In this document: positions 2,672 to 29,017 of the stretch, one piece after another
How positions within the stretch are numbered: the first letter of the stretch is position 1
Layout: every line of letters starts with the position of its first letter
NCBI GenBank assembly: GCA_021734995.1
Contig: JAIPHX010000002.1
Span: forward strand, 16,189-80,188
Reading direction: 5' to 3'
DNA length: 64,000 bases
Source of the DNA: Minisyncoccota bacterium
GTDB taxonomy: Bacteria > Patescibacteriota > Minisyncoccia > Phycocordibacterales > UBA9973
The notes under the pieces: generated by a model
What the model saw: only the letters and a program-made list of their open reading frames with translations
What the model was told of the DNA's origin: nothing
Database searches by the model: none
Translations under genes and position numbers: made by a program

Positions 2672-4963
2672 ATGCAAACAACAAACTACAAAATAAAAGG
2701 AATGCACTGTGCTTCTTGTGCTTCTATTATAGAAAAAACTATCAAGAAAATAGATGGAGTGAACGATATCTCCGTAAACAATGGGACAGAAAAAGCAAAA
2801 ATATCTTTTAATACAGACAAAATAAATCCTGAAATTTTTAATCAAAAACTAGAACCCCTTGGTTATTCCCTACTTATCCCCACAGCAGAAGAAATGAAAA
2901 TGTCTGAAAGTGAACATTCTGAACATTTAGGAATAAATCAATCCAAAAAAGAAAAACTAGCTGAAGTAAATGACATGCGTTCAAAAGTTTTGACTGCAAT
3001 CCCTATTGCCATAATAAGTATTTTTATAATGACTTGGGACATCCTAGCTCAATATAAAATATCCCCAGAAATGAGCTATGTAGTAAAAGAGTTTTTCCAT
3101 CACTTGCTTCCCATATTTGCTACCTATGTTTTGTTTGTTATTGGTAAGCCATATTTACTTGGTTTTTATCGCTTCCTTCGATATGGAAAAGCAAATATGG
3201 ATACTTTGATTGGTATTGGAACATCTGCTGCCTTTTTATATAGCTTTGCAGTATCGGCATTTGAAGAAACCCTTAGACCTTTTATTGATGTCAATCATAC
3301 ATACTATGATGTGACCATTGTCGTCATTACATTTATCGCTCTTGGAAAATATTTAGAAGCTAAATCAAAAATAAAAACAGGAGATGCTATAGAAAAGTTA
3401 CTAAATCTCCAAGCTAAGACTGCTCTGGTCCTTCGTGACGGAAATGAAATTGAAATTTCTATCAATGATGTTGTTCATGGAGATTCCATTTTAGTAAAAC
3501 CTGGATCAAAAATCCCTGTAGATGGTGTCATTACTGATGGTGTATCTTTTGTTGATGAATCAATGGTTACAGGAGAACCAATGCCTGTACAAAAGAAAAT
3601 CGGAGATACTGTAGTAGCAGGAACAATAAACACAAACGGTTCTTTTACTTTTAAAGCGACAAAAATCGGATCCGAAACACTTCTTTCTCAAATTATAAAA
3701 ATGGTAGAGGAGGCTCAAGGAAGTAAAGCTCCTATCCAAGCATTGGCTGATAAAATTTCAAGTATCTTCGTCCCAATTGTGCTTGCTCTATCTTTTGTAA
3801 CTCTTGCGGTGTGGCTTTTTTTTGGTACTGGACCACTGGGATTTTCACAAGCTCTTTCCTTTGGATTGGTTTCTTTTGTAGGAATCTTGGTTATCGCCTG
3901 CCCATGTGCTCTTGGCCTAGCTACTCCGACAGCAATTATTGTTGGGGTTGGGAAAGGAGCAAAAGAAGGAATTTTAATCAAAGATGCTGCTACTTTAGAA
4001 AAACTTCATAAAGCTGATACTGTGATAGTAGATAAGACAGGTACAATTACAATTGGGAAACCAACTCTTGTTGATATCAAAAACCTTTCCAGTATAGAAG
4101 ATGTTCATTTGATAAGCATACTTACAACATTAGAAAAAAAATCAGAACATCCTATAGCTCATGCTATCGTAGCGTATGCAGAAGAAAAAAACATTAAAAC
4201 ATCTGAAGTTACAAATTTTGAAAACATTCAAGGAAAAGGATTGAAAGGAACAATAGATAACACAGAATACTTTGTAGGTAATACAAAACTTATACAAGAT
4301 TTAAATTTATCTTTTGATCACCAACTAATCGAAAAATTTACGGAAGAAGGAAAAACTCCTGTCATTCTTGCTACTAAAGAAAAAGTGCTTGGTTTTGTAA
4401 TGGTGGCTGATGAAATAAAAAAAGAATCTATTCAAGCAGTTACTGACCTGCACAATCTTGGGATTAAAGTTATAATGCTTACAGGAGATAATGAAAAAAC
4501 TGCAAAATACATAGCCTCTCTTGTAGGGATTGATGAAGTGGTGGCTCATGTACTTCCAGAAGACAAGCTCACTAAAATAAAAGAGTTACAATCGGCAGGA
4601 CATATCGTAGCCATGGCAGGAGACGGAGTAAACGATGCTCCTGCATTGGCTCAAGCAGATGTAGGAATCGCAATGGGAACAGGAACAGACGTAGCAATAG
4701 AATCAGCAGGGATAACTCTTCTCCATGGAGATATTTCCAAACTTGTAAAGTCAATTAAATTATCAAAAATGACAATGCGAGGTATCAAACAAAATTTATT
4801 TTGGGCATTTATTTACAATGTTGTAGGAATACCTCTAGCTGCGGGAGTTTTCTATCCAATGTTTGGGTGGCTCTTAAATCCAGTATTTGCAGGTATGGCT
4901 ATGGCTCTATCAAGTGTCTCAGTCGTATCAAATTCATTAAGAATTAAAAGTAAAAAATTATAA
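2672..4963 (+). CDS. copA: Copper-translocating P1B-type ATPase
   Basis: N-terminal HMA domain (GMHCASCAS), a CPC membrane motif, DKTGT phosphorylation site and GDGVNDAP hinge. Confidence 0.9.
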
Positions 4964-4965
4964 TT

Positions 4966-5985
4966 ATGAAAAAATATACATTTCATGTTTCTGGTACTCA
5001 TTGTGCTTCGTGTAAGATATTGATAGAAGATACTTTAAATGAAGAGGACTTTATTCATACAGCGACGGTAAATTTAAATAATAAAATAGTAGAAGTTGAG
5101 ATTTTAAATGAGCAAAGTCCTGAAGAAGTTCTCATAATTCTTGCAGAAAAGATTAAAGTAAATGGATATACTCTATCACTAGAGAAAGAACTAAGGGAAA
5201 CTAAAAAAGATGACACTATTTGGAAAGCTATCCCAATCGGTTTAATTTTTCTTCTTCTATTTTTCCTATTACAAAAATCAGGTCTCCTCAACCTTGGGAT
5301 AGGTGGTAAGACCACTCCCCTTACAAGCTTTATCATAGGGTTGATTGCTTCTGTATCAAGCTGTCTAGCTGTAGTGGGTGGATTGGTTTTATCACTCTCA
5401 GCAAAAATATCTGAAGACAAGGTAAACGACAAAAAAACTTTTATTCTTTTCCATATCGGTAGATTGGTCAGCTTTGCTTTGTTGGGTGGAGTTTTGGGAA
5501 TGATAGGTAGTGCTATTGGAATAAGTTTTACCTTTGGATCAATACTAGGAATCATCGCTTCTTTAGTAATGCTAATACTTGGTCTAAATTTAATAGGAAT
5601 ATTTGAAAAAAATAAAATAACATTACCTTCAGGGTTTTTTCAAAAAGTTTTTACCTTCTTTAAAAAAATTGAACACAAGACAATCTCCCCTTTGATTGTA
5701 GGATTTGCAACTTTCTTTTTGCCTTGTGGTTTTACTCAAGCTATGCAAATATCAGCAATCGGAAGTGGCTCGTTTACTTCTGGATTTTTAATCATGTTTG
5801 CTTTTGCTCTTGGAACACTACCAGTCCTTGCTATTTTGTCTTTTGGTTCAGCTTCTTTTGCCCACAGCAAACACGCCCCACTCTTTTTTAAATCTGCAGG
5901 AATTGTAGTTATAGGACTTGGTGTATTCACTTTGCTTGCAGGATTGGTCGGACTTGGTATTATAAATCCATTATTTAATATTTAA
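4966..5985 (+). CDS. HMA-domain fused to DsbD_2/TauE-like multi-TM permease (putative metal transport/detox membrane protein)
   Basis: N-terminal GTHCASCK HMA motif followed by about 8 TM helices with Gly-rich repeats. Located within the cop operon. Confidence 0.45.
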   Translation: MKKYTFHVSGTHCASCKILIEDTLNEEDFIHTATVNLNNKIVEVEILNEQSPEEVLIILAEKIKVNGYTLSLEKELRETKKDDTIWKAIPIGLIFLLLFFLLQKSGLLNLGIGGKTTPLTSFIIGLIASVSSCLAVVGGLVLSLSAKISEDKVNDKKTFILFHIGRLVSFALLGGVLGMIGSAIGISFTFGSILGIIASLVMLILGLNLIGIFEKNKITLPSGFFQKVFTFFKKIEHKTISPLIVGFATFFLPCGFTQAMQISAIGSGSFTSGFLIMFAFALGTLPVLAILSFGSASFAHSKHAPLFFKSAGIVVIGLGVFTLLAGLVGLGIINPLFNI

Positions 5986-14310: not shown

Positions 14311-17300
14311 TTATCCTGCAATATCCACAGCAGGTAAATCTTTTTTCTTTAATTCTATACCATGAGCAACTAAAATCTTTTCATATTCTTCTTGTTCAAG
14401 AGTCTCTACTTCTATGAGTTTTTTAGCAATAGCATCTAAGGTCTTACGATTTTCAGTGAGAACTTTCTCAGCAGATTTTAATCCCCCATCTACTATTTTT
14501 GATATTTCATCATCCACCTTTGCTGAAACAGCTTCAGAATATTCTTTATCTCTGGAACCCTCCCAAGCAGAACCACCTCCAGATCCCACAAGCGCAATTG
14601 GACCTATTGCATCAGACATCCCAAATCTTGTAACCATTGCTCTAGCTACATTGTTGACCATTTGCAAATCACTAGAAGGACCAGTGGTAACATCTCCAAA
14701 CACCATTTTTTCTGCTACATATCCACCTAAAGACATCGCAATATCATCAAGAAACTCTCTTTTAGACTGAAGTCTTCTGTCTTCAAGAGGAAGTTTTAAG
14801 GTATATCCTCCTGCCCTACCACGAGCAATAATAGATACTTTGTGTACTGGGTCAGAAAAAGGCAATACTGATGCTACTAGCGCATGCCCTGCTTCATGAT
14901 ATGCAGTAATTTCTTTTTCTTTTTTTGAAAGAAGATGACTTTTTCTTTCTGGCCCAAGCATTACCTTTTCTATCGCTCGGATCAAATCAAACTGAAATAC
15001 TTTTTTACGATTTTCTCTTGCAGCCAAAATAGCTCCTTCGTTCATCAATGAATATAAGTCTGCTCCAGAAAATCCAGGAGTTCGCTCTGCGATAACTTTT
15101 AAATTTATATCTTCAGCTAAAGGTTTACTGTTTGAATGAATCTTTAAAATCTCCTCCCTGTCTGCTCTATCAGGTAGATCAAGAATAACTTTTCTATCAA
15201 ATCTTCCTGGACGAACTAAAGCAGGATCTAGTACATCGGGTCTGTTGGTCGCTGCCATTACTATGATCTTTTCATTTGGTTCAAATCCATCCATCTCTAC
15301 CAAGATTTGATTGAGTGTCTGCTCTCTCTCGTCATTTCCTCCACCAAAACCACCACCACGAGTGCGTCCAATAGCATCTATTTCATCTACGAATATAATA
15401 GCGGGAGCAGATTTTTTTGCCATTTTAAATAAATCTCTTACTCTAGATGCCCCAACCCCCACAAACATTTCTACGAATTCAGATCCAGACAAATGAAAGA
15501 ACGGGACACTCGCCTCACCCGCCACTGCGCGTGCAAGCATTGTATTGTGTGAAATAAGTCCATTTGAAATAAAAGAATGTGTTTTAGGAACAGTAAAATC
15601 ATAAACCCTTGCTTTATTATTGGTAATCTCTTTTACAGGTGAAAAAAATAATTTAGCTTCTAAAATTGAATTTAGATACTCTGTATTTTCATTATGAAAT
15701 CCCATCTTTTTACATCTGTCTAAAAACAATTCCAAAGAATTTCTACTGATCGTTTTTCTTGTCTTTACTTTATGAATTAACTTTGAACACCACTCATTGC
15801 TTAATTTTCTATCACTTAACTCTTTCCATGTGTCATGCACAATATGATGTATGTCATAAAATAAATCTATGTTTGTGTTTCTTTTAGTATGTAAAGACAA
15901 ATATTTATTCATTTCTTTTTGTTTTCTAGACAAACGAAATCCTACATTTTTAGAAAACTTTTCAAGCTCTACCCCAGAAACAGTAATCTCATATACATCT
16001 TTTAAATGACTATCATCTTTATGACGTTTGATTCTTCTTTTTGGTACAATACCCATATTCAAAAGTATTGCAAATACCTGATCAGATAATTTTTTACTTA
16101 CAGTTGAGTAGCCAAAAGAATATCGATGGAAATATCCATCTGAGTCAAATAATCCTTGCAAAAATGCAATTAAAACATGTTTTGGAGCTTGCAAAACAGA
16201 AGATGGAATAGCTTTATCATATGAGAGCAAGTAACTCATTCCCATCTCATATAAATCTTTTTTCATCTTCCAAGATGTCACTAAATGAGTAATACCGTCT
16301 CCTGCTAATCCTATATTAGTATCAGGATAATTTTCTGATACATAACTTTTAAAAGAACCTACTAACTCTTCATCTACAGAGGTAAAACCAATTCTACTAG
16401 CATGGCTTAAATTTCCATCACCTGTTAGGAGTCCCATAATATAAGCTTGGTCCGAAGAAACTTCTCTTGAAACACCATATACTTCTGTCCCAAATTTAAT
16501 AGCCACGTTGTCTCCTTCTTTTATTTCTTCTAATTTTTTAAACACGAGATCCCCTTTACTATCCATTACAATTACTGGATGTTCTGGTGTTCCCTCTAAA
16601 TCAACTCCTTGTTTTAAAGTAATCTTAAAAGTATTTTGTTCGCCCAAATCATACCAGTGAGAAGCCTCTTGGTCTGTTGTACGAGAACGAGTAACATCAA
16701 AAGTGGGCAATATTGCTCCTTTTACTGTGTGATCTTTTGGATTAACCCAAAAATATTTTGGGATATCTTTAATTTCAACCAACCCTTTATTTGTTAAAAC
16801 CAAAGAATCCCCTGTAATACATTTCCCTGTTCCGGGAGCCCCTGTAAGAATTACTCCTTTTGGGATTCTTGCTCCTATCTCAAGAAATTTTTTAGGACTT
16901 TTTAGAAAATCTACTATTTCTTTTAATTCTTCTTTTGCTTCTTTGCAACCCGCTACGTCTTTGAAAGTTACTTTGTTGTTTTTGTCATTAGGATCAGTAA
17001 TGCGAGCTTTGGATTGACCAAAAGTAAAAGCTTGCATCCCTGCGCCTTTTACTTGTCTTGATAAATACCAGAAAATAAAAATAATAAAAATAATCGGTAG
17101 TAAAAATGGTAAAATATTTAAAAGCCAAAATCCTAGACCGCTCTGATCTTTAATCTCAAGAGTAGTCCCTGCTAAAGCTTCTGCGCTTACGCCATAATTT
17201 GCTAAAGTCTCAGACAAAGATGACTCTACTTCTTTTTTTGCTTTCTTTACCTCTTCATTCTTGTAAGTCACAGTAATATCTCCTCCTGAAACTACAATCT

Positions 17301-17508
17301 TCTGCACTTCTCCTGCTGTAATAGCCTTTGCTAAGTCTGAAACAGGTATCTCTTCACTTTTCTTTGAAGAATTAGCGACAAAGAGATACAAAGCAGTAAT
17401 AATCATCAAAATTAAAATAACAGAGGCCATACTGCCAGATAATCCTGGGCCTGCATTTTTTTTTCCACCCTTCTTCCCCCCTTTTTTATTTAAAATATTA
17501 AAATCCAT
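14311..17508 (-). CDS. ftsH: ATP-dependent zinc metalloprotease FtsH, interrupted by an intein (precursor)
   Basis: Two N-terminal TM helices, AAA module (Walker A GAPGTGK|T split by the intein, Walker B IIFVDEID), HEAGH zinc motif and an FtsH C-terminus. The likely start is MDFNILNKK at 17508. The mature protein is about 639 aa. Confidence 0.9.
15544..16821 (-). mobile_element. FtsH intein (426 aa, with LAGLIDADG homing-endonuclease domain)
   Basis: Begins with Cys directly after GTGK and ends ...SHN, followed by Thr, the P-loop Thr. Internal LLTGDGN and [12 protein letters not shown] dodecapeptide motifs are present. Confidence 0.8.
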
Positions 17509-17570
17509 AGTTGCATTGTAGCATGAAAATTTATTAAAAGAAATTATAAAAATTATGCTAGAATAGCTAT

Positions 17571-18017
17571 ATGCCCAACTACGCAGAAAATAAAAAAGCA
17601 AGATTTGAATACGAGATTTTGGAAAAATATGAAGCTGGCATAGAGCTTACAGGAATGGAAACAAAATCCGTCCGACAAGGAAAAGCCTCTTTTGAGGGTG
17701 CTTTTGTAATTGTGCGTGGAGGAGAAGCTTTTTTAATAAATGCAAACATCACTCCTTTCCAACCCAAAAATGCTCCTGAAAATTATGATCCACTTAGAAA
17801 CAGAAAACTATTACTGACAAAAAAAGAAATCAGAGAGTTAGCTGAATCTGAGGCAAATAAAAGTTTGACAATAGTGCCTTTAACGATGTATAATAAAGGG
17901 AGAAAGATAAAGATCCAAATAGCATTGGTAAAAGGTAAGAAAAAATTTGATAAGAGAGAAACAATCAAAAAACGAGAAACCGATCGTATAATCAGAAGAA
18001 CTTTGAAAGATTACTAA
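17571..18017 (+). CDS. smpB: SsrA-binding protein SmpB
   Basis: 148-aa protein with RFEYEILEKYEAGIELTGMETKS. The start overlaps the ftsH promoter region. Confidence 0.85.
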   Translation: MPNYAENKKARFEYEILEKYEAGIELTGMETKSVRQGKASFEGAFVIVRGGEAFLINANITPFQPKNAPENYDPLRNRKLLLTKKEIRELAESEANKSLTIVPLTMYNKGRKIKIQIALVKGKKKFDKRETIKKRETDRIIRRTLKDY

Positions 18018-18041: not shown

Positions 18042-18437
18042 GGGGATGATAGGCATAGACAAGAGTCTTGTTTATCTGAATGCATGTCGAGAATGAACGT
18101 AATCTCGCTAAACTTCGTTCAAAACGTTAATTGCAAAATTGACTTCAAAAGTAAAGGCAATCACTTCTCCATACTTCGGTATGCAGGATTTTGCTTTTGC
18201 TCCAGCACGCGCTTAAGTGGGCTGGTGTCTTTCTCGTAGACTTCCGATATACGAAGAGAGGCATAATATTATCGGGATAGGAAAAGAAACTTCCCACTCT
18301 TCTTCCAAAACTTAGGGAATCGTTTGAAAAATATTTTGCTTACTTTATAATTTTTCAAACTAAACATAAGGTAAGACACACATGTAGAAATTCAAATATC
18401 AACCTTTTGCACGGGGATTCAATTTCCCCCATCTCCA
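18042..18437 (+). ncRNA. ssrA: tmRNA (ssrA)
   Basis: Lies immediately downstream of smpB. The 5' GGGGAUG pairs with the 3' CAUCUCC to form the acceptor stem. The T-arm is GGGGA-UUCAAUU-UCCCC, with discriminator A. A candidate internal tag ORF ends at TAA (18214-18216). Confidence 0.7.
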
Positions 18438-19962
18438 CATCAAGGGTATGACCAGCCTCAATTCGGTCAAATAGCTTATAAAGACAGGACTTTTCAGGGG
18501 TTCGATAACCCATTTCATGTACAAAGACAATTTTGTCATCAAACATGAAAGAGAAAAGCTCCTGTTTTTGCTTTACGGTCCCTTTTTCCCATATTTTATA
18601 AGGGCTTTTTATCATGCCCGTTATCTGATCATACGAAGTTCGATAAGGAATAACGTAGTCAATTTCTTTACCTAGTTTTTCCTCTATTTTCTCTAACTCA
18701 ATAGATTTTTCTTCAATTCTTTTCTGATAGCTTCTTTTCACTATCAGATTTTCTATTCCAATCGACTCATCTGCCAAACCGCCGATCTCCTCTTCAAGTT
18801 TACTTTTCTGTTTAATTAACAATTCCGATTGTTTACCAATTCCTTTTATTTCGTCATTCCATAAATCTTCAAACATCATCCCAACAATACCCACTAAGTC
18901 TGATTTAGGTTTATTATCTTTTACAAGTTTCTTAAATCCATCATCAATGTCCTTTTGCTTCACAGTCTTACTTCTCAATGCACACGATCGATACTGACAT
19001 GAATAATACGGGTGACGCTTACCAGTTTTACTTCTAGAATAATAAGCAGTCATCTTTCTGCCACATTCTGAACAGCAAACTAATCCTCTTAATGGAAACT
19101 CTTCTCGGATATCTTGCCTGATTACCGCATCTCTAGCTTCGCCATTAATTCTTTTCACATTTGCAAAATAAACCTCTTCAGAAATTACACCTTCGTGTTT
19201 GCCTTTCTGTCTTCTTACATCCCACTTCTCATATTCAATAAAACCAGCATAAAAAGGATCAAGAAGAAGTTTCTTTGTTGTCTCTAAGTATTTCTCAGCG
19301 TGACATTTTTTAGAAAAGAAACCTTTCTCCTGGAGAAATCTAGCAAGATCGATAATCCTTACAAACCGCTTATAGGCAAAACCTTCTAAGCCTTCCTTTA
19401 AGATTAATCCTGCACTATTTGGAAAACATGTGTTTCCATATTCAGTTCTACGCATCTCATAACCTTTAGGGGCATGGAAAGCCCAATAACCCCTCTCTAG
19501 ACGAGCCTTTTGCTTTTGAATAACTTGTCTCTTGTTCTGGTTCCTTTCAAGCTCTGCTCCTGCGGCAAGTATCACTTCTACATACTGACCTTCAGGACTT
19601 TCATCAAAGCTGAAATTCAAACACTCAGGCACAATCCCTCGTGTTCTAAATGCCGTTCTAAGTTTTAAGTGGAACTCGACATCTCGAGCAAAACGTTTAA
19701 GATTGTCAAAAACAACAACGAAATTATGATGAGGTTTTGAGTCTACGTATTCAAGAAGAGATCGCATTGCTGGTCGTGCCATAAAGTCTCCTCCACCTGT
19801 AAAGCTATCTTTAAAGACCTTTGTAGGCTCGCCATACCCCCTATTAACACAATAAGTGCGACATCTCTGTTCCTGAGACTCTAAACCACCACCTTCACGC
19901 ATTTGGCGCTCTGATGAGACACGGCAATATATGATTGGTATTCGTTTAATTTCTTCTTTCAT
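18355..19962 (-). CDS. Large serine recombinase (integrase)
   Basis: N-terminal resolvase catalytic domain (YCRVSSERQ), a recombinase domain and a Zn-ribbon (CSECGRKM...YYSCQ) with a coiled-coil C-terminal region. The last ~27 codons overlap the tmRNA 3' portion. Confidence 0.85.
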   Translation of the reverse strand: MKEEIKRIPIIYCRVSSERQMREGGGLESQEQRCRTYCVNRGYGEPTKVFKDSFTGGGDFMARPAMRSLLEYVDSKPHHNFVVVFDNLKRFARDVEFHLKLRTAFRTRGIVPECLNFSFDESPEGQYVEVILAAGAELERNQNKRQVIQKQKARLERGYWAFHAPKGYEMRRTEYGNTCFPNSAGLILKEGLEGFAYKRFVRIIDLARFLQEKGFFSKKCHAEKYLETTKKLLLDPFYAGFIEYEKWDVRRQKGKHEGVISEEVYFANVKRINGEARDAVIRQDIREEFPLRGLVCCSECGRKMTAYYSRSKTGKRHPYYSCQYRSCALRSKTVKQKDIDDGFKKLVKDNKPKSDLVGIVGMMFEDLWNDEIKGIGKQSELLIKQKSKLEEEIGGLADESIGIENLIVKRSYQKRIEEKSIELEKIEEKLGKEIDYVIPYRTSYDQITGMIKSPYKIWEKGTVKQKQELFSFMFDDKIVFVHEMGYRTPEKSCLYKLFDRIEAGHTLDVEMGEIESPCKRLIFEFLHVCLTLCLV

Positions 19963-21061: not shown

Positions 21062-21089
21062 CCTCCCACACTGTTTTTCACACTGTTTT

Positions 21090-21310
21090 TTGATATCTTT
21101 CGAGTTTCTTTCGATTATTTTTGTGCTTTGCTGTTTTTTGTTTTGTCGAGTAAATGTCGAGTTTTTTGCTTCGTTTCGATTTTCTTTCGATTATTTTATA
21201 TTAATTGACCCAGTTTTTACCGAGTATTTTTATTTAACTTTTCTGAAACTTTCGGTTTTCTTTCGGTTATTTTTTGCTTTTTGTCGATTATTTGTCGATT
21301 TTTTCAATTT
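21090..21310. repeat. Iteron-like array of degenerate direct repeats T(T/G)TCGA(T/G)T(A/T)TTTT (about 12 copies)
   Basis: Examples: TTTCGAGTTTC, TTTCGATTATTTTTG, TGTCGAGTAAA, TGTCGAGTTTTTTG, TTTCGATTTTC, TTTCGATTATTTTAT, TTTCGGTTTTC, TTTCGGTTATTTTTTG, TGTCGATTATTTGTCGATTTTTT. All lie in the intergenic or promoter region of the MerR-like gene. Confidence 0.6.
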
Positions 21311-21983
21311 AAGAGATTGCGATATCTATGTTTTTGATACCACTAAAGTCGAGAGGATTTTCTACTTTACTCAAAATAAACAGATTTACATTCCAAATAT
21401 AAGGATTAGCCACAGTAAAGATCGATGACTTTTGTCTGCCTGTAGTTGCAATCTCAATAGCATCAGAGTGCATCTTTATCTCTATAATCTTTGAAAGTGG
21501 TATGACTCGATTTTCCATAGTGCCCCTGAATACGAGCTTTTTGTTTGTAATTATCAAGTCTCCACTTTCTACCGATCTAAGCTCCTGATTGCTCTCAGAT
21601 TGCCCCTTATAGCCTCCCACATGCACACCTTTCATAACTCTGAAGCCAATCCCTAAACCTACTGAATTCCTAATAGATTTTGACTCCATTAAAACAGTGT
21701 TTTCTTTCAAAAAAGCGTACTCATCTTTTTCTAATAAAAGCGAAGTTGAGATAGGTTCGAGTTTCTTTTCTAACTTGATCTTCTCGACCAGATTTCGAGC
21801 CTCATCTTTCTGTTGCTGATCTACTAGCGCCTTGTTTTTAACACTACCTTTCTTCGATCCATACCAGAATAAAACGATACCTGCAATCAAACCGAATACA
21901 CCAAGAGCGGGATCGATGACCGAGGATATCAACCATATACAAACGGCAATAAGTGCCAATTTGGTCTTACTTAAATTTTCCAT
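21309..21983 (-). CDS. Membrane protein with bacterial PH (bPH_2-like) domain
   Basis: Two N-terminal TM helices. C-terminal LIITNKKLVFRGTMENRVIPLSKIIEIKM...IEIATTGRQKSSIF matches the bPH fold profile. Confidence 0.5.
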   Translation of the reverse strand: MENLSKTKLALIAVCIWLISSVIDPALGVFGLIAGIVLFWYGSKKGSVKNKALVDQQQKDEARNLVEKIKLEKKLEPISTSLLLEKDEYAFLKENTVLMESKSIRNSVGLGIGFRVMKGVHVGGYKGQSESNQELRSVESGDLIITNKKLVFRGTMENRVIPLSKIIEIKMHSDAIEIATTGRQKSSIFTVANPYIWNVNLFILSKVENPLDFSGIKNIDIAIS

Positions 21984-22002: not shown

Positions 22003-22140
22003 TAATAAAATACTTTTGGGCAGACAAAAAGCCCGCCGCCAAGCTGATGGTCCGAGGACCACCCATGCCCGTTTCCAGACATGACTCGCTACAAGCAACC
22101 CTGACGACGGGTTCTTTATCTTGTAGCGAGTTTTGCAACC
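22003..22140 (-). ncRNA. GC-rich structured leader / putative small RNA upstream of the bPH gene
   Basis: The ACTCGCTACAA motif occurs three times, twice direct and once inverted, so two mutually exclusive 11-12-bp stems are possible. There are additional GC hairpins (GGTCC..GGACC, GGGC..GCCC). GC content is far above the local background. Confidence 0.3.
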
Positions 22141-22210: not shown

Positions 22211-22564
22211 TTACGACCAAATTCTATCGGTAAGTTCTTGCGTTAATATACCTAAACTTGTACCAGTAGTATCAACAACATTTATAACAATCATGTCAAA
22301 AACAAATTTACCAGTATCATTAGTAATCAATTCAACATAGAAAACGAGATCATAAACTTCTGGCAGATTACGAGAGTAGGTTTTCCCGTCCAGTTTAGTT
22401 TTTATTTGTATAAACTTTATGTTTCTTCCTTTAATCGCAATTAAATCATTACCACTATCTTTTATTGGTGGCGCGGCTTGAATACCAAACTCAAGAAGCT
22501 GTAACTGTGAGAATATTTCTCCTATTGCTCCCACGTATGTTGTTTTTGGTAGAGGATTTCCCAT
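22211..22564 (-). CDS. Small hypothetical protein, possible PD-(D/E)xK-like fold
   Basis: 117-aa protein. GNDLIAIKGRNIKFIQIKT resembles a D...(E/Q)xK core. It is the last gene of the defense operon. Confidence 0.25.
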   Translation of the reverse strand: MGNPLPKTTYVGAIGEIFSQLQLLEFGIQAAPPIKDSGNDLIAIKGRNIKFIQIKTKLDGKTYSRNLPEVYDLVFYVELITNDTGKFVFDMIVINVVDTTGTSLGILTQELTDRIWS

Positions 22565-22582
22565 ATGTATTAAAGGAACTTT

Positions 22583-24328
22583 TTACTTATCGTAGTCAAC
22601 TTCAATATCAAGACCGAGCAATTTCTCTTCTGGTGAGCCATCCTTTAGGGCAAGAACTTCTTTACTTTCAATATATTTGATCTCGTCTGCTGAAAGATAT
22701 TCTTGGTTCTTAATTTGATCCAAAAAGTCTTGGTTGATTGTGAGAATATACTGAAGATTATTTTCCTCACAAATCTCAGAAACAAGTTTTAGGAATACTG
22801 CGACTTGTCTAGCATCTGTGTCACTAAGAATACGGCTGTCATGCGCCAAGAACTTTATGCCATGATTTGTCCCACCCATAACAAAAATAGTTAGATCGAA
22901 GCAAAGCATCTTTACACCAGCTATTCCATCCGAACTGTCATATTTGATGCGAGCATCCAGGTCAAATTGAGTTTGGTTATCTTTTGTATTTTCTTTAACG
23001 GTAATACCTGCGGTGGAAGATGGATAAAATGTTTCAGAAAGTTTAGTAAAGAAAGCATTATTTTTTTCATTCAAAGTGTCAACACTCAGCTTATAATCCA
23101 GCGCTTCTTTTTCTGCTTCTGCTCTTTCGATTTTAATTTCACTCTTTCTTTTCTTATTGTGATCAATGAGATTTTTGTACCTCTGTAATGACTCTAGTTC
23201 TTCTTGGGCTTGAGTTTTTTGTTGCACCAAAACAGAATAATCTTCCAGGGCACCGCCACTTCCTAACATACGAAGATAATCATCAAGCTCTTTATTTTTT
23301 AAAGAAAGACTGCCTTTTATCTTTTTTATTTGAGGTAATAATTCCGCTTTCTGTTTATTGAGTTGAGTAACTCGTTTGGTAGTTATTTGATTATGGAAAG
23401 ATAGAGTGTCTTTCAGGTTTTTCTTTAAAAGTTCAGGAAATTCAACAGATACTTTCTTGTACGCTAAAAGTACCTGATTTTTTTCAAGATCAAGTGGTAC
23501 AGCATTTTCAATTGTCTTATTTATATTTTGTAATCTCTTTTCAAGAATGAGTAATTCATTGATCAATGATTTTCGCTGATAGGATACCTGATCAGCTTCA
23601 CTTTGAATTTGTCTATTATTTTCTGCAATTTCATAATTCTTCAATCCGTTTTCAGCATCTTTAATCTTCACTCTGAGCTCTCTGAGTGCAATATCGACAT
23701 CGCTGTATTTAAGGAGAATACTCCTTACCTCATTGTCTTTATCAAGGGCATCTAAAACCACCTTTATCTTGTCAGCTTCTTCTTTAAGAACTTTCTTTTT
23801 AACTAAGTAATCAATATCAAAACCCAATAAATAGAAATTATTTATCAATTTCTGAAAAGGTTTTTCTCTTAAAAATACAGTATCCCAACTTACATAGCTT
23901 TGTTTCTTGGCACGCAAAAACCTATTCATTATTGTGCGGTAGCTGATATAAGGGTACTTACCTAGGTCAATATTAAAAAGCATCTCCTCCATTCTTTTAT
24001 TAAAAAGATCGAGTGATAATTCTTCTTCATTTAAATAAACTCTGTTTGTTTCCTCAGCAGGTCTTCGAACGGTGTAAGTCTTTCCGTCGTGTTCAAAATC
24101 AAGATAAAAGACCCAACCTTTTAGGCTATTTTTAAAAGCGTTATTATCTGATCCAAGACAAAAATCTATTATTGAGAGAAGAAGACTTTTACCTACTCCA
24201 TTAAAAGTTTTAGTGGTTGATTTGTCTTTGGGGTCTTTTTTTCCACCAAAAATAATATTCAAACTATCCGTTTTGAAGATGACGGTCTTAAATGTATCTT
24301 TGTTTGAATAAACTTTTAATAATTGCAT
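22583..24328 (-). CDS. SMC-like ABC ATPase with central coiled coil (LmuB/ABC-3C ATPase-like)
   Basis: N-terminal Walker A (FNGVGKSLLLSIIDF), a long coiled-coil middle region and a C-terminal Walker B/D-loop (MLCFD..FLAHDSRILSD). Confidence 0.6.
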   Translation of the reverse strand: MQLLKVYSNKDTFKTVIFKTDSLNIIFGGKKDPKDKSTTKTFNGVGKSLLLSIIDFCLGSDNNAFKNSLKGWVFYLDFEHDGKTYTVRRPAEETNRVYLNEEELSLDLFNKRMEEMLFNIDLGKYPYISYRTIMNRFLRAKKQSYVSWDTVFLREKPFQKLINNFYLLGFDIDYLVKKKVLKEEADKIKVVLDALDKDNEVRSILLKYSDVDIALRELRVKIKDAENGLKNYEIAENNRQIQSEADQVSYQRKSLINELLILEKRLQNINKTIENAVPLDLEKNQVLLAYKKVSVEFPELLKKNLKDTLSFHNQITTKRVTQLNKQKAELLPQIKKIKGSLSLKNKELDDYLRMLGSGGALEDYSVLVQQKTQAQEELESLQRYKNLIDHNKKRKSEIKIERAEAEKEALDYKLSVDTLNEKNNAFFTKLSETFYPSSTAGITVKENTKDNQTQFDLDARIKYDSSDGIAGVKMLCFDLTIFVMGGTNHGIKFLAHDSRILSDTDARQVAVFLKLVSEICEENNLQYILTINQDFLDQIKNQEYLSADEIKYIESKEVLALKDGSPEEKLLGLDIEVDYDK

Positions 24329-24567
24329 AAATGTAAATTGAAATTCTTATCGACCTCTACTGCACCAAAAGAATAGAGTAAGTCTAAGGCTAAAACAAAA
24401 TTTTGATGATTGTGGTAACTTGGACAGCGTTTAGTATTGTTGACAGCACTAAACTTTACCCAAAGCCCTTCAATTGAAACTGGTTTATCCAGTAATTCAA
24501 TAAGAACCCCAGAAAGTCCGAATATTGAGTCGTATAAACTAACATGTTTTGATGGAAAAATTATCAT
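24316..24567 (-). CDS. Small middle component (83 aa) of the ABC three-component system (LmuC-like)
   Basis: Small helical protein whose coding sequence overlaps both neighbouring genes. Its position is typical of an ABC-3C/Lamassu middle component. Confidence 0.4.
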   Translation of the reverse strand: MIIFPSKHVSLYDSIFGLSGVLIELLDKPVSIEGLWVKFSAVNNTKRCPSYHNHQNFVLALDLLYSFGAVEVDKNFNLHLCNY

Positions 24568-25499
24568 TTTGGTTCTTTGTATATATCACAACTTTCAAAG
24601 TAAAGCGCCATGAGGCTCAGTGCCGCTTTTCTTATCGCTGGCTCCATCATGCTATGAGATGAACTGCAGGTAAGAATGTCAAAAAATATATTGTCGGAAC
24701 ACTCCTCGTCTGCAGGCTCTCCATATTTTTTGACTGCTGAATTATATAGATGAGTAAATTTCTCTTGCAGTTCTTGTTTCAGCTCTTTATCGTCTATTTC
24801 TGAGAAATATTTTTCTACCTCTGATATGTTTTCATAATGCTTCTTCAGCATTTCGGTTGAGGATGCACTTAGGTGGTTAAATGCAATTTTTTCTTCGAAA
24901 TCAGGTGCGATAAGCTTGGCGCTTACATCATCAGGAATTTCCAATGATTTAAGATGTTCAGCAACAATATTCAGAGACTCGTAACTTAGTATTGTCTCGT
25001 CTGAATTTAAATGCAAAATTTCATCTTGTTTTTCTGGAGATAACTCTCTAAACATTCTTTGCAGATCATCAGCGTTGAATAGGTGAAATTTGATCTCAGA
25101 ATACTTTTTAGTTTTTTGAAGTTTGCTTAAAGCGCTACGTAGATCAGGATAAGCACCCTGAAACTTATCGTTAAAAGCAAAATAGAATTCCTTTATCGGA
25201 TCAATATCATTCCAAAACTTGTAAAGACCACCGAAGTCAGTGATCATTTTCTCTACCGCTTTTTGAGCGTTCTCTTTGGGATTTTCTGGGGAATAAACTT
25301 GATAAAAAATCCCTTCACCTTCTCTGTAGCCATCATTCTTCTTATCTCCCTTTGAGCCTTGTGGTTTAACCTTTTTAAAATTAGTGAAAGCAGAAGTAGC
25401 AACCTTCCAGAATAAATCCTGAAATGCTTGGGCATTGGCTTCGGTGATTAAGCCTCTCAAAATTTTTCCTGATATACGTTGATATTCAATCTGGTTCAT
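24564..25499 (-). CDS. Putative effector component (LmuA-like) of a Lamassu/ABC-3C-type system
   Basis: 311-aa protein. The N-terminal GDKKNDGYREGEGIFYQVYSPE region resembles a restriction-endonuclease-like core. It is the first gene of the operon and overlaps the next gene. Confidence 0.4.
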   Translation of the reverse strand: MNQIEYQRISGKILRGLITEANAQAFQDLFWKVATSAFTNFKKVKPQGSKGDKKNDGYREGEGIFYQVYSPENPKENAQKAVEKMITDFGGLYKFWNDIDPIKEFYFAFNDKFQGAYPDLRSALSKLQKTKKYSEIKFHLFNADDLQRMFRELSPEKQDEILHLNSDETILSYESLNIVAEHLKSLEIPDDVSAKLIAPDFEEKIAFNHLSASSTEMLKKHYENISEVEKYFSEIDDKELKQELQEKFTHLYNSAVKKYGEPADEECSDNIFFDILTCSSSHSMMEPAIRKAALSLMALYFESCDIYKEPK

Positions 25500-25834
25500 G
25501 CTCTTACTATTTTATCAGAAAGTAACATACAAAGAAATGCTTTGAACAGTTGATTGAGTACTTTTTAAATCAACGAACTAGTAAGAGTAACTTGTTCGTA
25601 TTCTCTATATGAAATCCAAGGTCGCTATACAACCCAGCCCAGTCAAAAGTTCGAAATCATACCTCCAGACGAGTAAAGACTCAATACTCAACCTTATATT
25701 CAATACTAGGATTGTGCCTATTAATTAAAAATTAATTATTGTAAAACAACATTTAAATTAGCGTTCTGTGGATCATTAAAATATTGATACCACTGATACA
25801 TAAAGCTTTTTATAGAGTTCAGTAGATTTCGGCT

Positions 25835-25846
25835 CATCTCCACATC
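25835..25846 (+). repeat. Third, degenerate copy of the tmRNA 3'-end core (CATCTCCACATC)
   Basis: Matches 18429-18440 exactly. The flanking sequence GATTTCGGCT resembles the tmRNA T-arm 3' strand AATTTCCCCC. Confidence 0.5.
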
Positions 25847-25852
25847 GCTCTG

Positions 25853-25880
25853 AAAAACTGCCTTAATGGCAGTTTTTTGG
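25853..25880. terminator. Bidirectional rho-independent terminator
   Basis: AAAAACTGCC-TTAAT-GGCAGTTTTTT. Confidence 0.6.
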
Positions 25881-25975
25881 TGCGACTGTGGTGCACAAGT
25901 GGGAAATTGAATAGCCGGAGCGCGACGGCGCGAGGCGGGGTCGCGGGTTTTGCCAGTAGGCAAAAACCTGTGACT
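25881..25975 (-). other. GC-rich structured element B (homolog of element A), adjacent to the distal att repeat
   Basis: On the minus strand: GGTTTTTGCC-TACT-GGCAAAACC, CGCGA-CCCCGCC-TCGCG, then GCGCCGTCGCGCTCCGGCT (shared with A), then ATTCAATTTCCC (identical to the tmRNA T-loop region), ending ...GCACCA before the terminator. Confidence 0.35.
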
Positions 25976-26002
25976 CATATTTCCCCCATCTCCACAAACA
26001 AC

Positions 26003-26548
26003 TTACCCAGAACAAGGTATCTCTGTATAAAGTATTTCTATTGGAAAACTTTCTCCTTGACCATTATCTGTAACCGAATCATCAATACGGAGTGTATTTG
26101 TTGAAAAATCTTCTTTATAAGAGTAACGCAATTCTGTTAAAGTTTTGTCTTTTAAAAAATATCTTTCTTCTTGATTGTTCCCACCTCCATCAAAAATAGT
26201 TATCGCTGTGATTGCATTAATCATACCATCATCAGATATTATTCCCTCTATTAGTCCTTTATATCCCACACTGTATTCTTGGGTTTGATTATATCCAGTT
26301 TTGATCCCTGTTATTTTAGAATCACTAACAATTAACTCTATGTTCCTTTTATCAATGATCTCAGAATCATCTTTAGAATATCCAAAACAATAAGTTCCAT
26401 TAGATATACGAAGTGGCTGGCTTGGTTTATTTTCATCAACAATTACTGGATCATCAAGTGAATCAAATTTTTTACCTTTATTAAAATAAAAATAACTAGT
26501 TACTCCTAGTAATAATAAAATAATTGTAAAAATTAGTATTTTTTTCAT
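26003..26548 (-). CDS. Secreted/lipoprotein-like hypothetical protein
   Basis: N-terminal signal-like hydrophobic segment. No recognisable domain. Confidence 0.35.
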   Translation of the reverse strand: MKKILIFTIILLLLGVTSYFYFNKGKKFDSLDDPVIVDENKPSQPLRISNGTYCFGYSKDDSEIIDKRNIELIVSDSKITGIKTGYNQTQEYSVGYKGLIEGIISDDGMINAITAITIFDGGGNNQEERYFLKDKTLTELRYSYKEDFSTNTLRIDDSVTDNGQGESFPIEILYTEIPCSG

Positions 26549-28372: not shown

Positions 28373-29017
28373 ATGAGAACTAATGCCTATGTTGATGCGT
28401 CTAACCTATTTTACGGAGGGAAAAAATCTCTAGGGTGGAGTATCGATTATAAAAAATTATACAAATATCTTGAGAATAAATACGACGTAACCGAAGTCTA
28501 TTTTTTTGGTGGCGTAGAGATTTATAAATTCCCCTTTGATTATATTACGGATGATTCTGTTCCTATAAAGGATCTAGAAAAATATCTTGCTAAACTGATT
28601 GAAGAAAAGGGCGCGTTTTTGAGTTAGGTAGAACTTAAATTACTGGACAGGCATTTAAAACGAGTTCGCTTTTATCTTACGATTGAGAAGTTTGGGTATA
28701 AAATGATTTTAAAACCAGTTAAAACTTTCTTTGATTCAGAAGGTTTACCTAGCAGAAAAGCTAATTGTGATGTCGACATGGCTTTCTTTTTGATGCGAGA
28801 CAGAAAGTCATATAATCGTGCAGTCATTCTTTCAGGTGATGGGGATTTCTTGCCTGTATTAAAATATTTACGAGAAGAAGACAAAAAAGAAATCTTTATA
28901 CTTGCTCACGCATCAAGAACAGCAAAAGAGATAAAAAAATTCGCTTCTGATAAATTCCTAGATTTCACCTATTTGAGAGAACGCTTAAAGCGTATAGATA
29001 AAAGAGAAACCATCTAA
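28373..29017 (+). pseudogene. NYN-domain (LabA/DUF88-like) ribonuclease gene interrupted by a single in-frame TAG
   Basis: ORFs 28373-28627 and 28703-29017 are in the same frame. They are separated only by TAG at 28625-28627. Read through, the N-terminal part (YVDASNLFYGG) and the C-terminal part (CDVDMAFFLMRD...ILSGDGDF) form one NYN domain. Confidence 0.5.

Follow-up and report, generated by a model that had tools for sequence, protein, structure and literature searches.

A probable type II Lamassu (ABC-three-component) cassette of a Candidatus Pacebacteria genome, carried by a serine-recombinase island at the tmRNA gene

ABC-three-component (ABC-3C) systems were reportedly described by Krishnan et al. 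in 2020 and are said to be equated with type II Lamassu. ABC-3C, type II Lamassu, and DdmABC are names of one superfamily, the genes of which follow the order LmuA-LmuC-LmuB, LmuC being the “middle component” (PMC10586767; 10.1101/2025.06.23.660979; 10.1101/2025.03.14.643221). In the complex that serves as a template, LmuB2:LmuA:LmuC, DNA ends are sensed and LmuA tetramerises via its C-terminal domain (10.1101/2025.06.23.660979). A deviant Walker B motif, generally with an E to Q replacement, is typical of LmuB (PMC10586767; 10.1101/2025.06.23.660979), and many LmuB proteins, not all, harbor a zinc hook (CPxCG-like) at the apex of their coiled coil, a feature that is not obligatory (PMC10586767). 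The locus analyzed here lies in a stretch of 64,000 nucleotides from a Candidatus Pacebacteria genome (contig JAIPHX010000002.1, positions 16,189 to 80,188; hereafter the window), between positions 22211 and 25499 of that stretch. We consider it likely that three of its genes form an anti-phage/anti-plasmid cassette, namely a type II Lamassu (ABC-3C) system of the CTD10/MC6/DUF2326 subtype, which is carried on a serine-recombinase island in the transfer-messenger RNA (tmRNA) gene and followed by a separate add-on gene encoding a 117-aa protein.

On the minus strand, the LmuA-like effector gene (25499..24564, 311 aa) is followed by the LmuC-like middle component gene (MC6; 24567..24316, 83 aa), the LmuB-like ATPase gene (DUF2326; 24328..22583, 581 aa), and the gene of a small PD-(D/E)xK-fold protein (22564..22211, 117 aa). 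According to the list of open reading frames (ORFs), the effector gene overlaps the 83-aa gene by 4 nt and the latter overlaps the ATPase gene by 13 nt, while the 117-aa gene starts 18 nt past the ATPase stop codon, without overlap. A sequence-only reading of this DNA had described four overlapping minus-strand genes: the four ORFs are present exactly where it placed them, and the overlap holds for the first three but not for the fourth. Judging from their relatives, all four are real genes and not chance ORFs, since all have many homologues in public data and three display significant family matches.

In the effector, residues 175-308 correspond to the Pfam domain CTD10 of ABC-3C systems (8.1e-16), with a weaker match to CTD12 (0.008). 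The 83-aa protein is matched by Pfam ABC-3C Middle Component 6 (MC6, 4.1e-13) and by MC7 (7e-5), and the C-terminal head of the 581-aa protein by Pfam DUF2326 (3.9e-29). Among PADLOC models, the ATPase is covered end to end by PDC-M68B (2e-75) and over residues 4-547 by LmuB (3.2e-14); the effector matches PDC-M68A (2.6e-12 and 1.3e-10), only its residues 169-309 being aligned, and matches to the PDC-M68A and PDC-M68B models are both present and co-located. NCBIfam yields for the ATPase only a distant match, to a TrlF-family ATPase (3.9e-9), and the protein also matches a phage-encoded family, PHROG 5467 (1e-51). The order of the triad and its gene overlaps recur in the loci L009, L011, L015, L066, and L067, and the effector shares 86% identity with its counterpart in L066, 69% in L009, 66% in L067, and 37% in L011. 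The ATPase is distributed patchily in metagenomes, near AIPR, Fic, and methylase genes, and public records label homologous proteins “ABC-three component system protein”. The triad belongs to an already catalogued subtype (Pfam CTD10/MC6, PADLOC PDC-M68). The assignment to Lamassu/ABC-3C proposed by the sequence-only reading, with its LmuA-LmuC-LmuB order, is borne out by the Pfam families CTD10, MC6, and DUF2326 and by the PADLOC LmuB and PDC-M68B models. Its suggestion of a possible new variant is not supported, because the triad subtype is already catalogued and the 117-aa gene is a promiscuous neighbor; CTD10/MC6/DUF2326 triads with the same N-terminal effector domain form a large, catalogued family.

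An alignment of four ATPases sharing 31-73% identity shows as invariant the Walker A motif TFNGVGKS (residue 44), a DSSDG/CFD block, and the Walker B motif F-x-x-HDSR, which reads FLAHDS at residue 493 in the window. Because the residue following the Walker B aspartate is a serine, the ATPase lacks the catalytic glutamate. Residues 171-430 contain 3% Pro+Gly and 55% EKQRLA in a composition scan, and a heptad scan of the middle segment reveals two heptad-like arms with a proline-containing apex between them. No CxxC zinc hook is found in the 581-aa ATPase.

The effector is composed of an N-terminal α/β domain (residues ~1-165) followed by a helical C-terminal CTD10 docking domain (175-308). Its AlphaFold2 (AF2) model (predicted local distance difference test score, pLDDT, of 87; predicted template modelling score, pTM, of 0.84) displays an α/β domain and then an all-helical segment at 173-303. 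Among the homologues scanned, CTD10 is present in 39 out of 39, and no Pfam match covers the first ~170 residues in any of these 39. Their alignment exhibits G51, D52, D56, G57, P71, K84, W96, and N110 as invariant and K54, N55, and Q67 as nearly invariant, the N-terminal motif being GDxKNDG...YQVYsPE...K84...N110. One distant homologue has GDGGNDG instead, which we take to resemble the Mrr motif. The best Foldseek matches of the effector in the PDB are the XPF, Mus81, and Bse634I nucleases, which are weak (E 0.06-1.3); those in BFVD are phage proteins annotated “Restriction endonuclease” (best E 2.6e-3 with prob 1.0, several others at prob 0.94-0.98). The alignment profile of the effector gave spurious matches only against PDB sequences, and hhalign detected no signal between the N-terminal domain and the 117-aa family. 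The domain is not claimed as a member of the Mrr family, hhalign against an Mrr_cat protein having given nothing.

When a profile of the N-terminal domain is run against 1.84 billion representatives, 1738 proteins are retrieved at E<=1e-3, these being cluster representatives at 50% identity. Most of them are ~305-325 aa long, as expected for the N-terminal domain plus CTD10. The domain is also located at the N-terminus of long nSTAND3, NACHT, and NB-ARC+TPR NTPases, as well as of an HATPase_c_3/HD-CE protein and of TPR-GreAB-C-PIN proteins. Its N-terminal placement in nSTAND3, NACHT, and NB-ARC proteins is the position of effectors in conflict systems and points to a portable effector domain, with a predicted restriction-endonuclease-like fold, a non-canonical Q-x-Y active site, and a putative nuclease activity. 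Without a Pfam model and common to Lamassu and STAND NTPases, this domain is a lead of more interest than the system itself.

Gene structure, family membership, conservation, fold similarity, genomic context, and island bounds are observed here, while the complex, its DNA trigger, the nuclease activity, and the co-transcription of the genes are inferred. The mechanism proposed for the cassette is modelled by homology on the solved Vibrio and Bacillus Lamassu (types I and II). A dimer of the 581-aa ATPase would hold one 83-aa middle component and one 311-aa effector, the latter via CTD10, at the coiled coil. The bound effector would be kept monomeric and inactive. The complex would sense invader DNA, either its ends or aberrant replication structures, upon which the effector would be released and would oligomerise through its C-terminal domain. 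The active N-terminal domain would then attack nucleic acid, aborting infection.

A serine-recombinase island of 7.56 kb, inserted into the tmRNA gene at its 3′ end, carries the cassette as cargo in this Candidatus Pacebacteria genome. The tmRNA gene (ssrA; 18042-18440, plus strand; Rfam, 116.9 bits), upstream of which SmpB is encoded (17571-18017), carries at its 3′ end an 18-nt direct repeat, ATTTCCCCCATCTCCACA (attL; 18422..18439, plus strand). The extent of the island follows from the exact recurrence of this repeat at 25979..25996 (attR, plus strand); by our own estimate, the chance of such an 18-nt repeat in 8.8 kb is ~6e-4. The island has as its integrase a large serine recombinase of 535 aa (18355..19962, minus strand), matching Pfam Resolvase (1.9e-19), Zn_ribbon_recom (1.1e-7), and Recombinase (0.0039). 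In minus-strand order, it comprises a conserved 5′ element, the effector, MC6, ATPase, and 117-aa genes, a LOOT RNA, a terminator-like hairpin, two ORFs of 224 aa and 294 aa with iteron-like repeats between them, and lastly the recombinase gene. In locus L067 (coordinates 4021-5741), ~570 nt separate the end of the triad from the 3′ terminus of a tmRNA gene that has SmpB and FtsH next to it, and the recombinase, LOOT, and the 117-aa gene are absent from this interval. The cassette thus seems to land recurrently at the ssrA locus.

Several further features of the island are to be noted. The recombinase ORF spans attL and its last ~22 codons are antisense to the tmRNA; as the ORF crosses attL, the C-terminus of the protein would differ when the island is excised. 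The 224-aa and 294-aa backbone ORFs have no Pfam or PHROG match and no homologue in the islands L001, L003, L009, and L015, and a single ORF matches the 224-aa protein among 80 loci (L070-L149) obtained by scanning metagenomes with the LOOT sequence pattern. Between these two ORFs, at 21086-21312, four copies of a ~23-43-nt repeat (TTTCGATTTTCTTTCGATTATTT), with a spacing of 76, 76, and 32 nt, resemble iterons or operators. Near 25836-25845, the att repeat has an additional, partial copy (CATCTCCACA). Just inside attR, a GC-rich patch (ccggagcgcgacggcgcgaggcggggtcgcggg...) occupies 25846-25978, in a genome of 33% GC; an Rfam scan of 25480-26060, which includes this patch, gave no match at E<=1.

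The 117-aa protein has no match in Pfam, PADLOC, or NCBIfam, and its only match in PHROG is a weak one to a family of unknown function (1.2e-4). At least 149 homologues of 115-130 aa are found in a protein-cluster database at 90% identity. The N-terminal half of the family is near-invariant (MGNPLP..GTIGELLVQLRLLEYGVQAAPPIKDSGNDLIAIKG..KFIQVKT), while the C-terminal half is variable: in 45 homologues, N3, E16, Q20, D36, G38, N39, D40, and K55 are invariant and Q53 nearly so, and the motif E16...D40 (GNDLIAI)...Q53-x-K55 is intact in the window protein. The family is distributed patchily in bacteria of the Candidate Phyla Radiation (CPR), Proteobacteria, Omnitrophota, Nitrospira, Acidobacteria, and archaea, at 40-60% identity, and a protein from a Candidatus Pacebacteria metagenome-assembled genome (MAG) is 100% identical to the product of the window gene. 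The AF2 model (pLDDT 88.9) comprises a helix and then a β-sheet. Foldseek against the PDB retrieves SPARDA chains (identified by PDB entry title only), I-Ssp6803I, tRNA-splicing endonucleases, Hjc, NhoI, and HincII, with a best E of 4.5e-3 at prob 1.0, all of which we take to be PD-(D/E)xK enzymes. With hhalign, KDSGNDLIA...IQVK of the 117-aa protein is superimposed on ADGGIDLIL...VQCK of an Mrr_cat protein at low probability, and the alignment profile gave only spurious matches against PDB sequences. On this modelled structure, the protein has a PD-(D/E)xK, nuclease-like fold. An unannotated, conserved small nuclease-fold family recurring beside defense genes is a lead worth keeping.

The motifs quoted in the sequence-only reading (GDKKNDGY and IFYQVY in the effector, FNGVGKS and the Walker B in the ATPase, D...QxK in the 117-aa protein) are all present and conserved. 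The D...QxK core is upheld by both the motif in the 45 homologues and the AF2/Foldseek fold, and the long coiled coil of the ATPase agrees with the composition and heptads of residues 171-430. The restriction-endonuclease-like N-terminus of the 311-aa protein stands at the fold level only, weakly, through Foldseek.

As a rule, the 117-aa gene is a promiscuous add-on and not a conserved Lamassu component, because it is absent from L009, L067, and L011, its homologues follow unrelated defense genes, and no partner recurs. The sequence-only reading had already called this gene non-canonical, and it is indeed missing after the same triad in these three loci; BLASTN alignments of the window with L009 and L067 break off exactly at the stop codon of the ATPase gene, 22583. 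In L001/L002, a homologue of 70% identity comes 3 nt after a DndB/DpdB-like gene that is accompanied by a methylase; in L003/L004, a homologue is found 4 nt behind a Shedu SduA gene, and in L005 one is found behind nothing obviously related. The 53 loci of the family in GTDB genomes belong to CPR phyla, Gammaproteobacteria, Omnitrophota, Methanoperedens, Nitrospira, Acidobacteria, Verrucomicrobia, and others. Upstream of these homologues are genes of a type I R subunit, DruA, Mrr_cat, type IIG, SduA, DndB, and others, and downstream those of GmrSD, Schlafen-AlbA_2, TIR, ParE, DUF2326, and others. An all-vs-all BLAST of the four genes on each side covered 50 related loci and the window, drawn from the 53 genome loci plus L001, L003, and L005, the family ORF being uncallable in three. 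No conserved protein partner recurs in it, and serine recombinases are the only repeated neighbor family (5 loci). ABC-3C adjoins a gene of the family in only two of the 53 loci plus the window. In L015, the family member lies beside another ABC-3C triad, is convergent with it, and is paired with its own upstream 241-aa gene.

A number of observations weigh against the reading of the locus as a three-gene Lamassu cassette with a nuclease-like effector and an add-on gene. A phmmer search of the ATPase against all PDB chains matched no solved LmuB or Rad50 chain, so that membership rests on the PADLOC and Pfam profiles. PDC-M68 is itself a PADLOC candidate system only, and no paper on it was found in the literature searched. 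In the effector, Q67-V-Y69 replaces the canonical (D/E)xK, with a tyrosine at the lysine position; no Foldseek match of the effector falls below E 1e-3, those that link it to restriction endonucleases are weak (E 2.6e-3 to 0.1) and do not display the region aligned, and hhalign gives no signal between its N-terminal domain and an Mrr_cat sequence. As to the fourth gene, it lies on the strand of the triad after a gap of 18 nt, and a consensus scan finds no terminator-like site between it and the ATPase gene. Furthermore, positions 25665-22185 of the window are kept in L066, the closest relative examined, as one block of 83% identity over 3.5 kb, which takes in the element upstream of the cargo, the four genes, and a further 26 nt, in another setting and without LOOT or recombinase; and a second ABC-3C system, that of L015, adjoins a member of the 117-aa family. 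For these reasons, the fourth gene may conceivably be linked in function to the triad in this sub-lineage. The triad might in principle be nothing but a housekeeping SMC/RecN-like chromosome-maintenance ATPase with unrelated neighbors, as the architecture of the ATPase is generally SMC/Rad50-like. Its best profiles, however, are the defense-specific PDC-M68B and LmuB, and no RecN, SMC, or SbcC family passes the threshold in Pfam or NCBIfam; the gene is carried by a mobile island with direct-repeat bounds, recurs patchily beside AIPR, Fic, and methylase genes, and matches a phage-encoded family. We hold this explanation to be most improbable, and the non-defense SMC/RecN placement that the sequence-only reading had set beforehand as the contrary outcome is not seen.

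The observations on the fourth gene can also be cited for a true four-component Lamassu variant, in which the 117-aa protein would act as a functional subunit, be it as a further effector or as the actual nuclease, that the LmuB-like complex recruits or licenses. Its intact E...D...QxK, as compared to the Q-x-Y of the effector, is in line with such a role, and a 4068-nt contig that carries both P0001 and P0066 suggests a third case of the triad and the 117-aa gene occurring together. The same gene is, however, absent from L009, L067, and L011, has ABC-3C beside it in the small share of loci given above, and follows DndB, SduA, HsdR, DruA, or Mrr elsewhere, or stands alone with its own upstream gap; the copy in L015 converges with its ABC-3C operon and has a different gene, of 241 aa, as partner. 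The effector N-terminal domain is represented by more than 1700 clusters, as compared to 149 homologues of the 117-aa protein, a rough comparison as the two databases are clustered differently; since most of these clusters cannot have a 117-aa gene nearby, the domain must work alone. A four-component system appears unlikely to us. The L066 block, the P0001/P0066 contig, and the lack of a terminator-like site in the scan indicate that, in this sub-lineage, the 117-aa gene is an acquired add-on that has joined the cassette at its 3′ end and is probably transcribed with it. L066, in which the gene accompanies the triad without LOOT or recombinase, weakens the view of this gene as strictly a part of the island backbone. 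Another explanation bears on the 117-aa gene alone and is compatible with a Lamassu identity of genes 1-3: it might be a selfish homing-endonuclease-like gene or a one-gene defense nuclease, spreading by itself to operon 3′ ends in mobile and defense islands. Its fold neighbors include the homing endonuclease I-Ssp6803I and Hjc-type resolvases, its distribution across phyla is patchy with no fixed partner, its presence/absence polymorphism between the ATPase stop codon and LOOT is precise, and it recurs near serine recombinases. Conversely, no target site, flanking repeats, or intron/intein context were found for it, and the strong conservation of the N-terminal half of the protein is unusual for homing endonucleases. 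This explanation is quite conceivable, although short of probable. The three-gene type II Lamassu cassette, with the 117-aa gene as a separate add-on, is the reading retained in what follows.

The 3′ boundary of the cargo is marked by a LOOT RNA (Rfam RF03000; 22046..22175, minus strand), located 36 nt downstream of the 117-aa gene and scoring 79.8 bits against a gathering threshold of 46.4 for a full-length match (1-121). The Rfam entry describes it as a small RNA, with no function named. Directly past LOOT, a consensus scan alone identifies a terminator-like hairpin with a T-run (22030..22045, minus strand), which is a possible end of the operon transcript. LOOT is also present in other islands. 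In L001 (7389-7507), as in L002, it follows the homologue of the 117-aa gene at the spacing of ~35 nt seen in the window; in L009 (9111-9227) it comes directly after the ATPase gene, in L003 (13250-13374) after a methyltransferase/DUF87 cargo, and in L015 (4477-4591) in the same position relative to the cargo. LOOT as a general partner of the 117-aa family was considered and rejected: only five of 59 sources have LOOT (plus one weak match), and the 117-aa gene occurs in one of the 80 LOOT loci. ABC-3C occurs in none of the 80, so that the links between LOOT, the 117-aa gene, and ABC-3C are modular and not obligatory. Genes that recur beside LOOT in these loci encode an N6_N4 DNA-methylase protein of ~430 aa (27 loci), serine recombinases (25), and a small-terminase-like protein (21). 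In eight of the 80, a protein of ~494 aa is encoded whose sole Pfam match, to a DEAD helicase, is weak; at a guess from its position and motifs, it is a large terminase. The recurrence of methylase, serine recombinase, and terminase-like genes points to LOOT belonging to CPR prophages and phage-derived elements, of which the island of the window looks like a small member with a defense cargo. To note, the L015 contig (2763-8734), labelled SAR86 (a Gammaproteobacteria MAG), harbors the ABC-3C triad, the convergent 241-aa and 118-aa pair, and LOOT; as this architecture matches that of CPR islands, the contig may be mis-binned or horizontally transferred.

On the other side of the cargo, a conserved element followed by a hairpin (25588..25673, minus strand) displays 79% identity to L001 4225-4311. 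Its 35-nt core, TTTCGAACTTTTGACTGGGCTGGGTTGTATAGCGA (window 25656-25622), is also found 5′ of the cargo in L001/L002 (L001 4243-4277), L066 (370-404), and L009/L010 (L009 5045-5079). Over ~35-87 nt, the element is conserved in front of differing cargo in several islands. A promoter-like site is identified at 25684-25656 by consensus scan only. The hairpin arms, CGAACAAGT/ACTAGTTCG in the window and AGCGAG/CTCGCT in L066, look base-pair-preserving by eye. This element may be a shared promoter/leader or a recombination boundary of a cargo slot. A broader proposal, which is tentative and rather doubtful, is that the 117-aa protein founds an undescribed, widespread, minimal PD-(D/E)xK family of autonomous defense or selfish modules, located at the 3′ ends of Lamassu, Shedu, Dnd-Dpd-like, restriction-modification, and Druantia operons, with a cargo slot between the 5′ element and LOOT in CPR phage-derived islands. 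If true, the cargo slot would give the orphan LOOT RNA its first genomic role; its context, in any case, is that of prophages and islands of CPR bacteria, where it borders defense cargo on the 3′ side.

Two other observations concern genes of the window outside the island. The FtsH homologue (14311-17601, minus strand, 1096 aa) reads GAPGTGK|CITGDSLV...ISHN|TMLARA, which suggests an intein inserted in its Walker A loop. Two adjacent short ORFs of 84 and 104 aa (28373-28627 and 28703-29017, plus strand), the second of which matches the C-terminal part of the NYN domain, may be a split or frameshifted NYN ribonuclease gene.

The locus would thus provide a clear Lamassu/ABC-3C example in a CPR bacterium (Pacebacteria), on a small tmRNA-targeting island, and suggests that CPR organisms with tiny genomes acquire SMC-based abortive-infection systems as exchangeable cargo. 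The effector domain, the small nuclease-fold family, and the LOOT context do not alter the understanding of Lamassu. The effector shares its N-terminal domain with antiviral STAND NTPases (Avs/NLR-like), at E values of 1e-47 to 1e-62 and in the usual effector position; whereas those proteins join it to a STAND NTPase, the domain of the window is joined to an ABC-3C C-terminal domain and would depend on an SMC-like sensor. The 117-aa protein resembles small PD-(D/E)xK nucleases (the Mrr catalytic domain, archaeal Hjc, I-Ssp6803I, chains of SPARDA structures) by its predicted α-β-β-β-α-β core and by the Mrr pattern D...QxK, with an acidic residue in helix 1, strand 2 beginning with the aspartate, and strand 3 containing Q-x-K. 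It differs from them by the lack of a significant sequence match, a distinctive N-terminus, a variable C-terminal half, and a solitary gene.

Of the catalogued systems, PADLOC PDC-M68 is the one that the ATPase follows end to end, and the C-terminal domain of the effector matches the C-terminal half of both PDC-M68A models. The first 170 residues of the effector are not aligned, and this module either differs from those of the PDC-M68A models or is not covered by them. With type II Lamassu (LmuA-LmuC-LmuB, as in Vibrio cholerae DdmABC), the cassette shares an effector, a small middle component, and an SMC/Rad50-like ABC ATPase, in this order. In both cases, the effector is composed of an N-terminal enzymatic domain, here a predicted one, and of a helical domain of the ABC-3C CTD series. 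The coiled-coil insert, the Walker B motif without the catalytic glutamate, and the carriage by a mobile element are likewise common to both. The differences reside in the components themselves: the window combines CTD10 with MC6, whereas the Vibrio system combines CTD7 with MC3 and the Bacillus type I system has CTD12. Its effector domain is an unnamed, predicted restriction-endonuclease-like module with Q-x-Y in place of (D/E)xK, and not Cap4 (DUF4297). The Walker B motif of its ATPase reads D-S instead of the D-Q of Lamassu, the CxxC zinc hook is missing, and the protein is too distant from solved LmuB for phmmer, in a host that belongs to the CPR.

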